Translations under genes and position numbers: made by a program
In this document: positions 8,532-11,468 of the stretch, one piece after another
Numbering within the stretch: the first letter of the stretch is position 1
Layout: every line of letters starts with the position of its first letter
The notes under the pieces: generated by a model
What the model was told of the DNA's origin: nothing
What the model saw: only the letters and a program-made list of their open reading frames with translations
Databases searched by the model: none
Sequence record: MW250785
Reading direction: 5' to 3' (one strand)
Length of the DNA stretch: 64,000 nucleotides
Source: Escherichia phage UPEC03

Positions 8532-8608
8532 GGCCCTTTAGCTTAATTGGTTAGAGCGGGTGACTCATAATCGCGCGGTTGCTGGTTCGAATCCAGCAGG
8601 GGCCACCA
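8532..8608 (+). tRNA. tRNA-Met (anticodon CAU; could also be a lysidine-type Ile)
   Basis: Hand-folded cloverleaf. Acceptor GGCCCTT/AGGGGCC, anticodon loop CTCATAA, T-arm GCTGG-TTCGAAT-CCAGC, encoded CCA. There is one G-G mismatch at the top of the anticodon stem. Confidence 0.85.
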
Positions 8609-8613
8609 AATAC

Positions 8614-8689
8614 GCAGGTGTAGTTCAATTGGTAGAATATCTGGTTTCCATCCAGATTGTTGAGGGTTCGAGTCCCTTCACCTGCTCCA
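8614..8689 (+). tRNA. tRNA-Gly (anticodon UCC)
   Basis: Acceptor GCAGGTG/CACCTGC, anticodon stem TCTGG/CCAGA with loop TTTCCAT, T-arm GAGGG-TTCGAGT-CCCTT, encoded CCA. Confidence 0.9.
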
Positions 8690-9263: not shown

Positions 9264-9289
9264 AGGCTATCTTCGGATAGCCTTTTTTC
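9264..9289 (+). terminator. Rho-independent terminator
   Basis: AGGCTATC-TTCG-GATAGCCT followed by TTTTTT. Confidence 0.8.
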
Positions 9290-9300
9290 TGGAGAAGCAC

Positions 9301-9870
9301 ATGCGCTTTTTAAAATACGCAAGCTGGTTTGTACTGGTTCCCCTGGATATTCTGTCCGGTGTTCTGGCTATTCTGCTGGCTCCTTTCGTGGTTCCGTTCT
9401 ACAGTGACGAAACAGGACATTTGCCTAAAGGGTTCCGTTGGATGGAAACATTCGATAACCCGATCGATGGTGATGGTGGACATATCCGGCGTTGGGCTAA
9501 CATCCGGTATCACTTAGGCGCTCTGGGTGTGTATGCGCAGCGTGTAGGCTGGTTGTGGCGTAACAAGGCGTACAACTTCGCTTATAACGTCTTAGGGCGT
9601 GAAGCACAATCAGACTTCGACTGGAAGGGAAACCCGAAAACAGAAGGTGGTTCCGACCCATCACGTCACGGTTATCTGTTGATGTGGAATGATTCGGCAT
9701 GGGGGCTTTATGTCTTCAAACCGTGGCTTAAAGTCGGAAAGGTTCAGTTCTGCTTACGCGTGTATTGCGGGTGGAAACTGAAACAGGAAGTAACTGACCC
9801 TAACGGGCTGGATCGTGCAATGCTGGCGTTCCATATCAACCCGTTACGTTATTATGTCGTAGAAAGGTAA
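9301..9870 (+). CDS. Membrane-anchored hypothetical protein (189 aa)
   Basis: SD GGAG upstream. N-terminal hydrophobic helix [23 protein letters not shown]. Confidence 0.6.
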
Positions 9871-9874
9871 TACA

Positions 9875-10237
9875 ATGAAAGCATATCAGATTTTAGAAGG
9901 TTTACACACTGGTACAATCTACCTGGAAGAAGGTAATGATGTTCGTGTGGTGGTATCCAAAACCCTCGAAATGGATTCAGTGATCGGTAAAGCTCGCGTT
10001 GCTCCATTCGCAAAACGTGAAGTCGATATTGAATTTCAACCCACTGTTAAAGTGGAAGGTGGACAACACTTAAACGTAAACGTGTTGCGCCGTGAAACTC
10101 TGGAAGACGCTGTGAAGCATCCAGAAAAATACCCACAGTTAACGATCCGTGTGTCCGGCTATGCAGTGCGTTTCAATTCACTGACTCCTGAACAACAGCG
10201 CGACGTTATCGCCCGAACCTTTACAGAGAGTCTATAA
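9875..10237 (+). CDS. grcA: Autonomous glycyl-radical cofactor (GrcA/YfiD-like)
   Basis: 120 aa. The C-terminal ~60 aa ([61 protein letters not shown]) match E. coli GrcA as I recall it, including the glycyl-radical motif RVSGYA. The N-terminal half is unrelated. Confidence 0.85.
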
Positions 10238-10518
10238 TGGCGATTGAAGACGTACAGGGCTATAAGCCCCATTCAAAAGAAAAGATCGACAAAGTAAACC
10301 ACATCAAGGCCGCTGAAATTGCCCTGGGCGAAATCTTCAAAGAACTGGATGAAGAGTATTCAAGCGATTACGCGGTATCAGATACCGATTCATTCACCAC
10401 AGAAGAACTCGATGCGATGCTTGAACGTGTCCATCAAATCCAACTGGCGAAAGACCGACTGAAAGAAGCCTCTATGTGGGCGTGTCGTGCGGTGTTCCAG
10501 CCAGAAGAAAAGTATTAA
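10237..10518 (+). CDS. Acidic hypothetical protein (93 aa)
   Basis: TAATG coupling to the grcA-like gene. Confidence 0.55.
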   Translation: MAIEDVQGYKPHSKEKIDKVNHIKAAEIALGEIFKELDEEYSSDYAVSDTDSFTTEELDAMLERVHQIQLAKDRLKEASMWACRAVFQPEEKY

Positions 10519-10523
10519 AATCC

Positions 10524-10552
10524 AGCCGTTGCCGAAAGGTAGCGGCTTTTTT
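10524..10552 (+). terminator. Rho-independent terminator
   Basis: AGCCGTTGCC-GAAA-GGTAGCGGCT (two G-U pairs) followed by a T-run. Confidence 0.65.
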
Positions 10553-10643: not shown

Positions 10644-10937
10644 ATGAAAACTTACAACATGAAAGAACTGGTTTGCTTCAACACTCGTCGTGAAGCCCGT
10701 GCGTATGTTCTGGCGGCTGGTAAGAATACCTCTGCTGTAATCGACCTGGGTACTGATAAAGCTGTTGGCGCACGTTGGGCTGCTGTTGTGGTTATCGCTG
10801 CTCCTGTGACTCCTGTTAAAACTCTGGTTCTGGGTGCGCGTAAAGCCGAAACTCTGAAAACCAGCACTTGCGGGGCGGGTGGTGTTCATAATGTTACGGT
10901 CATTCGAAAAAGATCTTTTAATCGAGTCGGTGTATGA
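10644..10937 (+). CDS. Hypothetical protein (97 aa)
   Basis: SD GAGGA 8 nt upstream. The N-terminal 45 aa look protein-like; the Ala/Val-rich C-terminal half is less certain. Confidence 0.5.
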   Translation: MKTYNMKELVCFNTRREARAYVLAAGKNTSAVIDLGTDKAVGARWAAVVVIAAPVTPVKTLVLGARKAETLKTSTCGAGGVHNVTVIRKRSFNRVGV

Positions 10938-11027
10938 AGGTATACGGGGAAAACATAAAGAACAATCTCCGAAGAGATTGATGTAATCAATGAATTTCTA
11001 TGTAGACCATACGTTAAGAGAGTTATT

Positions 11028-11468
11028 ATGAATATTGGTAGTGGTGATTCATACCCATCATGCGCATTGAGCAACTTCGCCCCGCATCCGTTTACGTTTG
11101 ACGGGGTAGAATGTGCATCAATGGAGGGCTTTTTACAAAGTCTGAAATTCAGCAATCCAGATATGCAAGCGCATGTGTGTACGCTGGTTGGTAAAGCCGC
11201 CAAGTTCAAAGGCAAGAAAAAGAAATGGTATCGCGATCAGACCCTATACTGGAAGGGTATGCCGATTCACCGTGAATCAGAAGCATATCAAATCCTGATT
11301 GAAAACGCGTACAATGCTCTTTTCCTGAATGACGGGTTCCGCCGTGCGCTGGCTGCAACCGGAAAAAGTACCTTGACTCATTCAATGGGAAAGAATAAGA
11401 TGAATGAAACGGTACTCACTGAACGTGAGTTTGTCCGAAATTTAACCCGATTGAGAGATCTGTTATGA
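11028..11468 (+). CDS. NADAR / YbiA (DUF1768)-like domain protein
   Basis: 146 aa. LSNFAPHPFTFDGVECASMEGFLQSLKF matches the N-terminal NADAR signature (SNF..PF..DG..Y.S.EH.FQA.KF). Confidence 0.6.
   Translation: MNIGSGDSYPSCALSNFAPHPFTFDGVECASMEGFLQSLKFSNPDMQAHVCTLVGKAAKFKGKKKKWYRDQTLYWKGMPIHRESEAYQILIENAYNALFLNDGFRRALAATGKSTLTHSMGKNKMNETVLTEREFVRNLTRLRDLL

Follow-up and report, generated by a model that had tools for sequence, protein, structure and literature searches.

How does a bacteriophage come to encode a protein whose last 61 residues match, without a single exception, those of a metabolic repair protein of Escherichia coli? The question is raised by an open reading frame (ORF) at positions 9875-10237 of a 64,000-nucleotide stretch (hereafter the window) from Escherichia phage UPEC03 (sequence record MW250785), a Pseudotevenvirus (Straboviridae) genome. 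An initial annotation, made from the sequence alone, had described the gene as a chimera in which a glycyl radical domain identical to that of the host protein GrcA (YfiD) is attached to an unrelated N-terminal half, and had offered as explanations either a recent capture of the host gene or recombination with it, or extreme constraint imposed by host pyruvate formate-lyase (PFL) and its activase. The reading favored here, to which a probability of roughly 0.78 is given, is that the gene is the Pseudotevenvirus ortholog of T4 vs.6/Y06I, a spare-part glycyl radical protein in which the identity over residues 60-120 is maintained by purifying selection and the N-terminal half is homologous to that of GrcA.

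Family Membership and Gene Neighborhood

The protein matches the Pfam Gly_radical model (PF01228) with 66.9 bits, well above the cutoff of 22.2, and is covered from end to end by phrog_1209 (E 1.1e-59, residues 1-120 against profile positions 1-121), to which the N-terminus alone also matches (E 4.6e-10). The NCBIfam GrcA equivalog TIGR04365 (IPR011140) aligns residues 18-120 with profile positions 23-126 and scores 155.5 bits, under its cutoff of 170 because the N-terminal half has diverged. Two shorter relatives, GrcA2 and GrcA3 (NCBIfam NF008341 and NF038360; approximately 80 aa), have a radical domain in common with the phage protein (scores of 106.5 and 93.1 bits, respectively) but lack an N-terminal half; the phage protein retains this half and scores under both cutoffs. 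The ORF is bounded by neighboring ORFs and encodes a stand-alone protein of 120 aa without the catalytic barrel of PFL, so that, unlike PflB, it cannot be an enzyme by itself. Matches of PFL-type enzymes to the phage protein are confined to their last ~40-70 residues, and the C-terminal domain of E. coli PflB (PDB 1H16/2PFL, residues 689-759) has the same fold element and radical motif and is identical to phage residues 60-120 at 48 of 61 positions. Within the motif RVSGYAV, R92-V93-S94-G95-Y96 are invariant in an alignment of 58 sequences.

Phage T4 vs.6/Y06I (NP_049730) is likewise 120 aa long and colinear with the phage protein without gaps, with identity at 91/120 positions (23/47, 9/12, and 59/61 over residues 1-47, 48-59, and 60-120); it belongs to the same PHROG family and also has a vs.4 homolog downstream. 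The class proposed initially, that of phage GrcA proteins akin to T4 Y06I, is therefore the right one. The T4 locus differs in arrangement, since vs.5 lies between vs.6 and vs.4, the upstream genes are not those of the window, and vs.6 is located between denV and regB, whereas the window gene lies between the cd/tRNA genes and the ligase gene. E. coli GrcA/YfiD (P68066; PDB 6OWR; TIGR04365) shares with the phage protein its two-part architecture, but is seven residues longer and is encoded between ung and eamB, whereas the phage gene sits in a cluster of the early-gene type.

The gene is one of an apparent three-gene unit bracketed by terminator-like hairpins, consisting of a phrog_2143 ORF, the GrcA gene, and a vs.4 homolog (Table 1). 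The stop codon of the GrcA gene overlaps the ATG of the vs.4 homolog (TAATG), which suggests a shared transcript. The downstream product is 52.7% identical to T4 vs.4 (E 1e-29, BLASTP); the upstream 189-aa ORF matches neither T4 vs.7 nor vs.8 significantly. Because a vs.4 homolog follows directly downstream, the gene sits within a block inherited across the Straboviridae, and the vs.4-adjacent arrangement is also annotated in Klebsiella phage Mineola. The 15 kb around the gene share 94-99% identity with phages of Enterobacter, Klebsiella, Cronobacter, and Citrobacter, and homologs were found by tblastn in 1,587 phage records, mostly of T4-like phages with some T5-like and jumbo phages. In both DNA and protein, the gene is 100% identical to a coding sequence of Enterobacter phage EC-W2 annotated as "autonomous glycyl radical cofactor." It is thus an ordinary T4-type phage spare-part protein that public annotation already names correctly; a literature search that was not exhaustive turned up no earlier description of the phage GrcA/vs.6 family.

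Table 1. Features of the phage GrcA locus (positions in the window).
Feature	Position	Strand	Basis
Terminator-like hairpin and T-run, upstream bound of the unit	9264..9283	+	consensus scan only
Upstream 189-aa ORF, phrog_2143, function unknown, first of the apparent three-gene unit	9301..9870	+	ORF list, PHROG match
Shine-Dalgarno-like GAAAGG, 7 nt before the ATG	9862..9867	+	read from sequence
Stop codon of the upstream ORF	9868-9870	+	read from sequence
Phage autonomous glycyl radical cofactor CDS, 120 aa and stop, ATG start	9875..10237	+	ORF listing
Residues 1-47, fast-evolving homolog of the GrcA N-terminal half	9875..10015	+	profile comparison, shuffles, conserved positions
Residues 48-59, transition segment partly conserved with bacterial GrcA	10016..10051	+	alignment
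Residues 60-120, glycyl radical domain	10052..10234	+	alignments to GrcA, PflB
GGC codon, Gly95 in RVSGYAV, predicted glycyl radical site (= PFL Gly734)	10157..10159	+	motif alignment with PFL, YfiD
Downstream 93-aa ORF, T4 vs.4 homolog, phrog_717	10237..10518	+	BLASTP, PHROG match
Terminator-like hairpin (10 pairs) and T-run, downstream bound of the unit	10524..10547	+	consensus scan only

Other elements of the region include adjacent tRNA-Met (CAT) and tRNA-Gly (TCC) genes at 8532-8608 and 8614-8689, approximately 1.2 kb upstream of the GrcA gene; the EC-W2 annotation lists tRNA-Gly alone in this neighborhood. Several homing or HNH endonuclease genes (EC-W2 ECW2_0139/0141/0159; window region 10771-11298) are annotated in EC-W2 among the small early genes near the locus, and such interspersed endonuclease genes are typical of mosaic regions in T4-like phages.

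Constraint on the Radical Domain

Residues 60-120 (VEGGQ...TESL) are identical at 61/61 positions to residues 67-127 of E. coli GrcA/YfiD (PDB 6owr_A; E. coli grcA), RVSGYAV included, which bears out the original impression that the last ~60 residues are those of the E. coli protein. The identity does not extend to the underlying DNA. Over the 61 codons and the stop codon, 31 of 186 bases differ from E. coli grcA, 28 of them at third and three at first codon positions, and all are synonymous. The absence of any nonsynonymous change against 31 synonymous ones indicates extreme purifying selection. The same 61-residue domain shows just 0-4 differences when 80 species of the Enterobacterales and Pasteurellaceae are compared, reaching as far as Haemophilus and Aggregatibacter, and many bacteria, among them E. 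coli, Citrobacter, Cronobacter, Serratia, Pectobacterium, Erwinia, and Edwardsiella, have a domain identical to that of the phage. Given this near-invariance, identity between the phage and E. coli means that both keep the consensus. The 61/61 identity is thus kept by very strong purifying selection and the domain is an old resident of the phage gene; of the explanations originally offered, extreme constraint is the one upheld. Selection of this intensity is in keeping with a domain that has to insert into host PflB and to be recognized by the host activase PflA.

The description "host-identical" holds for E. coli but not for the recorded hosts Enterobacter and Klebsiella, in which two residues of GrcA differ (LMDAVEH in Enterobacter and LLDAVEH in Klebsiella vs. 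LEDAVKH in the phage). For these hosts, an exact fit of the phage domain to the host is consequently not literally true. The possibility that the gene is a pseudogene or relic was considered and rejected, with dN at 0 over the 61 codons relative to E. coli and dN/dS at ~0.07 in the N-terminal half.

Origin of the N-Terminal Half

The initial annotation stated that residues 1-55 do not resemble GrcA, and at the level of pairwise identity this is accurate. Identity to E. coli GrcA is 10/47 (~21%) over residues 1-47 and 6/12 over residues 48-59, and residues 48-60 are identical at 11/13 positions to Ewingella REVPMEFQPTVRV. Similarity to GrcA therefore falls stepwise, from 100% to ~50% to ~21%, with no clean junction. 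A single-sequence phmmer search with the 47-residue N-terminus against 1.84 billion representatives retrieved no bacterial GrcA, and no alternative donor family for the N-terminal half was found in it. Besides two fragments of the vs.6 family, the matches were large repeat proteins, which were dismissed as artefacts because their scores sum 6-22 insignificant repeats of 1-7 bits each.

More sensitive comparisons reveal the relationship. Although direct HMM searches between bacterial and phage N-termini yield 0.7-14 bits, which is not database-significant, the two types are linked by a bridging group of homologs of 130-137 aa (P0020, P0026, P0029, and others). When N-termini alone were aligned with hhalign, with everything from REV onward removed, the phage type matched the bridging group with E 4.9e-13 and the bridging group matched bacterial GrcA with E 7.4e-12, the whole segment being aligned in both cases. 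Direct comparison of the phage and bacterial N-terminal profiles gave P 1.8e-4, and none of 300 column-shuffled controls reached the real score (22.3, against a shuffled maximum of 16.6). R24 does not vary among the 58 phage and bacterial sequences, and each of Q5, I6, K29, D34, R48, E49, P56, and V58 is conserved in at least 90% of them. The bridging sequences, the profile-profile and shuffling results, and the conserved positions together show that the N-terminal half is homologous to that of GrcA. It is the same domain as in bacterial GrcA, strongly diverged between the phage and bacterial lineages, and with dN/dS of ~0.07 relative to Slopekvirus it is constrained within the clade. The description of the gene as chimeric, with an unrelated N-terminal half, thus cannot be retained, and in the initial annotation's own terms a gene with a homologous N-terminal half is not chimeric.

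In YfiD, residues 1-60 help the protein to bind cleaved PFL and to be activated, yet catalysis does not require them, while residues 61-127 sit in the PFL active site (PMC8683613). The step in conservation along the phage protein coincides with this domain boundary. AlphaFold, when supplied with the 58-sequence alignment, predicts residues 1-50 (window 9875-10024) as a five-strand beta domain with pLDDT ~91, and the radical domain with lower confidence than the N-terminal half; from the single sequence the model has a pLDDT of 35 and is unusable. A confidently predicted beta fold of this kind contrasts with the disorder in solution reported by NMR for YfiD residues 1-60 (PMC8683613). Foldseek recovered only 6OWR and PFL from the PDB, in a comparison that does not extend to the N-terminal fold since the 6OWR library entry holds only the 60 ordered C-terminal residues, and KOW/L14e-like matches were weak (E 0.1-1) and not significant.

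The gene for P0029, a member of the bridging group (130 aa; L083:6001-6393, ENA contig NODE_10_length_150797), is situated two genes downstream of a 276-aa ORF (L083:4512-5342) that scores 25.6 bits against Radical_SAM, under the cutoff of 29.5, and that adjoins a phage HP1-like gene and a YadA-type adhesin gene. This locus may be a mobile element with its own activase.

Synonymous Divergence of the Radical Domain

Amino acid identity of 100% to a host protein is no evidence of recent transfer before the synonymous sites are checked. The DNA of the radical domain is 83% identical to its counterpart in each of the 5,426 complete E. coli genomes. Among the grcA genes of 82 bacterial species none exceeds 83.6% identity (Buttiauxella), and no identical run is longer than 29 nt, a donor beyond this sample being formally possible; Cronobacter grcA, which encodes the same 61 residues as the phage, is 80.3% identical at the DNA level. 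By the Nei-Gojobori method, dS is ~1.8 relative to E. coli and at least 1.26, mostly saturated, relative to 80 grcA genes of the Enterobacterales and Pasteurellaceae, estimates that rest on ~46 synonymous sites and, being saturated, give no date. The use of synonymous divergence to date the capture, as the initial annotation had advised, hence yields saturation in place of an age and refutes recent capture for the window gene. Differences from E. coli grcA, 31 in all, occur evenly along the tract, and the GC content at third codon positions (GC3) of the C-terminal half, 0.459, is typical of the phage (mean of window ORFs 0.473, sd 0.064).

Base composition is unusual in the other half of the gene. 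GC3 of the N-terminal half (window 9875-10051) is 0.305, which places it at around the 3rd percentile of 61-codon windows across the phage ORFs, so that the compositional outlier is the phage-specific N-terminal half and not the host-like C-terminal half.

Comparison of the window gene with those of two Slopekvirus phages gave dS of 1.04 for the N-terminal half and 0.48-1.31 for the C-terminal half, with dN of 0.077 and 0.022, respectively. Both halves are constrained, and the similarity of their dS values indicates that they have been inherited together since before the split of the genera. The C-terminal half is accordingly shared with Slopekvirus by descent, a further result at odds with recent recombination with the host gene.

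Host-to-Phage Conversion in T4 and Related Phages

The situation in T4 itself is quite different. The C-terminal half of vs.6 (NC_000866 63557-63919; L084:7558-7920, minus strand) is 97.3% identical to E. coli grcA at the DNA level, with a perfect run of 138 nt and dS of 0.07, whereas the C-terminal half of the window gene is saturated relative to every sampled bacterium and, at 83.6% and 29 nt, is far from a tract of the T4 type. The T4 tract begins at the IEGGQ codons and ends 6 nt short of the stop codon, and its flanks are unrelated to the E. coli sequence. Relative to Karamvirus EnC07, T4 shows dS of 0.61 in the N-terminal half and 1.87 in the C-terminal half, a discordance that fits replacement of the C-terminal half. 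GC3 is 0.41 in the T4 C-terminal half and 0.43 in E. coli grcA, against 0.30 for the whole T4 gene. Identity of at least 95% to E. coli grcA nt 200-384, reaching 99.5% at the highest, is found in 520 of 1,508 matching phage records, mainly of T4-like phages of Escherichia and Shigella. In T4 and these ~520 related coliphages the 3' half of the gene is a real host-to-phage conversion tract, and the window lineage is without one. The suggestion of recombination with the host gene, mistaken for the window gene, therefore turns out to apply to T4 and its close relatives, in which the 3' half is E. coli DNA. The DNA identity between T4 vs.6 and E. coli did not turn up as described in the literature, in a search that was not exhaustive.

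In a few coliphages, such as Escherichia phage vB_EcoM-RPN187 (OL770074.2 62007-62229), the match to E. coli grcA begins ~38 nt earlier on the upstream side, at nt 162, with ~90-92% identity over the extension, which suggests conversion tracts with varied 5' boundaries. Klebsiella phages of two genera (Mineola, L085:1501-1860; Slopekvirus, L087 and L088:1501-1860) carry L77 and E81 (LLDAVEH) where the window protein has E77 and K81, the L77/E81 pair being that of Klebsiella and Salmonella GrcA. Their DNA is just 84-87% identical to sampled Klebsiella grcA, and that of Mineola is 90.7% identical to a Pseudocitrobacter grcA. The residue pair in these phages could reflect older conversion or co-adaptation.

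Alternative Histories of the Gene

Could the window gene nonetheless be a recent chimera, either a fusion of an unrelated phage N-terminal segment to the radical domain of host grcA or a phage gene whose 3' half was overwritten by it? Identity to GrcA does drop from 100% to ~21% over roughly 13 residues, and the process is demonstrable within the family, as T4 vs.6 and the ~520 coliphage records attest. Against this, no sampled bacterial gene approaches the phage DNA, be it in overall identity, uninterrupted run, or dS; the differences from E. coli are spread along the whole tract; the C-terminal half has the GC3 of the phage and does not exceed the N-terminal half in its divergence from Slopekvirus; and the N-terminal half is itself homologous to GrcA. 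A recent chimera is accordingly extremely improbable. An event of the same kind in the more distant past, namely a T4-style conversion of the C-terminal half before the split of Pseudotevenvirus and Slopekvirus, with synonymous sites since saturated and ameliorated, is easier to accommodate yet still unlikely. Conversion is frequent in sister lineages, Mineola (Jiaodavirus) reaches 90.7% DNA identity to a Pseudocitrobacter grcA, and GC3 differs between the two halves, being lower in the N-terminal one; but this last contrast arises from an AT-rich N-terminal half while the C-terminal half does not look foreign, no positive signal of conversion is left, and on present data the proposal is indistinguishable from simple vertical descent.

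A broader scheme would treat phage GrcA genes in general as serial mosaics, in which the radical half would be repeatedly overwritten, by homologous recombination, with the grcA of the current host while the N-terminal half would be a folded, phage-specific beta domain as opposed to a disordered tail, the window gene having been converted anciently or never. Such overwriting is demonstrable in the T4-like coliphages and possibly older in the Klebsiella phages with L77/E81; as an account of the family as a whole the scheme is doubtful. Orthology to T4 vs.6 with vertical descent and purifying selection is the reading retained here for the window gene.

Proposed Function

As a spare-part protein of this kind, the phage GrcA would act in infected cells under anaerobic or microaerobic conditions, where oxygen would cleave active host PFL at the glycyl radical, located at G734 (PMC8683613). 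The phage C-terminal domain, which is the same as in host GrcA and shares 79% identity with the C-terminus of PFL, would dock into the damaged enzyme and replace the lost fragment, and the host activase PflA would then install the radical on phage Gly95. Restored PFL activity would maintain production of acetyl-CoA, ATP, and formate through phage replication. This activity is presumed by analogy with experiments on T4 Y06I and YfiD. T4 Y06I, like YfiD, is reported to be activated by PFL-AE and to restore O2-cleaved PFL (PMC8683613, where Wagner et al., 2001 is cited for it), and function is transferred from Y06I to a protein that is 49% identical to it over residues 1-47.

No CxxxCxxC motif occurs in ORFs of at least 90 aa in the 64-kb window, in which no radical-SAM activase is present, and none is annotated within 20 kb on either side of the identical gene in EC-W2; the remark in the initial annotation that no phage activase is evident nearby was thus sound. 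A link to phage NrdD/NrdG was also considered and rejected, as neither is present in the window neighborhood and the C-terminal domain is of the PFL type.

The divergence of the N-terminal half invites a different proposal, in which this domain redirects the radical domain to TdcE or another glycyl radical enzyme, or in which the protein serves as a decoy that titrates PflA, in place of or in addition to PFL rescue. A half that is only 21% identical to bacterial GrcA, that is nonetheless held by purifying selection within the clade (dN/dS ~0.07), and that AlphaFold models as a confident five-strand beta domain (pLDDT ~91) might have acquired a partner of its own. However, the C-terminal domain is identical to that of GrcA and close to that of PflB, T4 Y06I has the same phage-type N-terminus and is reported to rescue PFL (PMC8683613), and the gene context points to no other partner. 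Such retargeting is therefore very unlikely, and rescue of host PFL by a vs.6/Y06I ortholog is preferred.

Implications

The window gene itself matters little, as T4-like phages are known to carry it as an auxiliary metabolic gene and its identity to the host protein has a conventional explanation. The wider value is one of method and lies in the lesson about synonymous sites drawn above. T4-type coliphages carry E. coli DNA in the radical half of the gene and the window lineage does not, and the two also provide a clean natural contrast for the study of host-to-phage gene conversion. The same contrast could reveal the GrcA residues on which PflB and PflA impose a true constraint.
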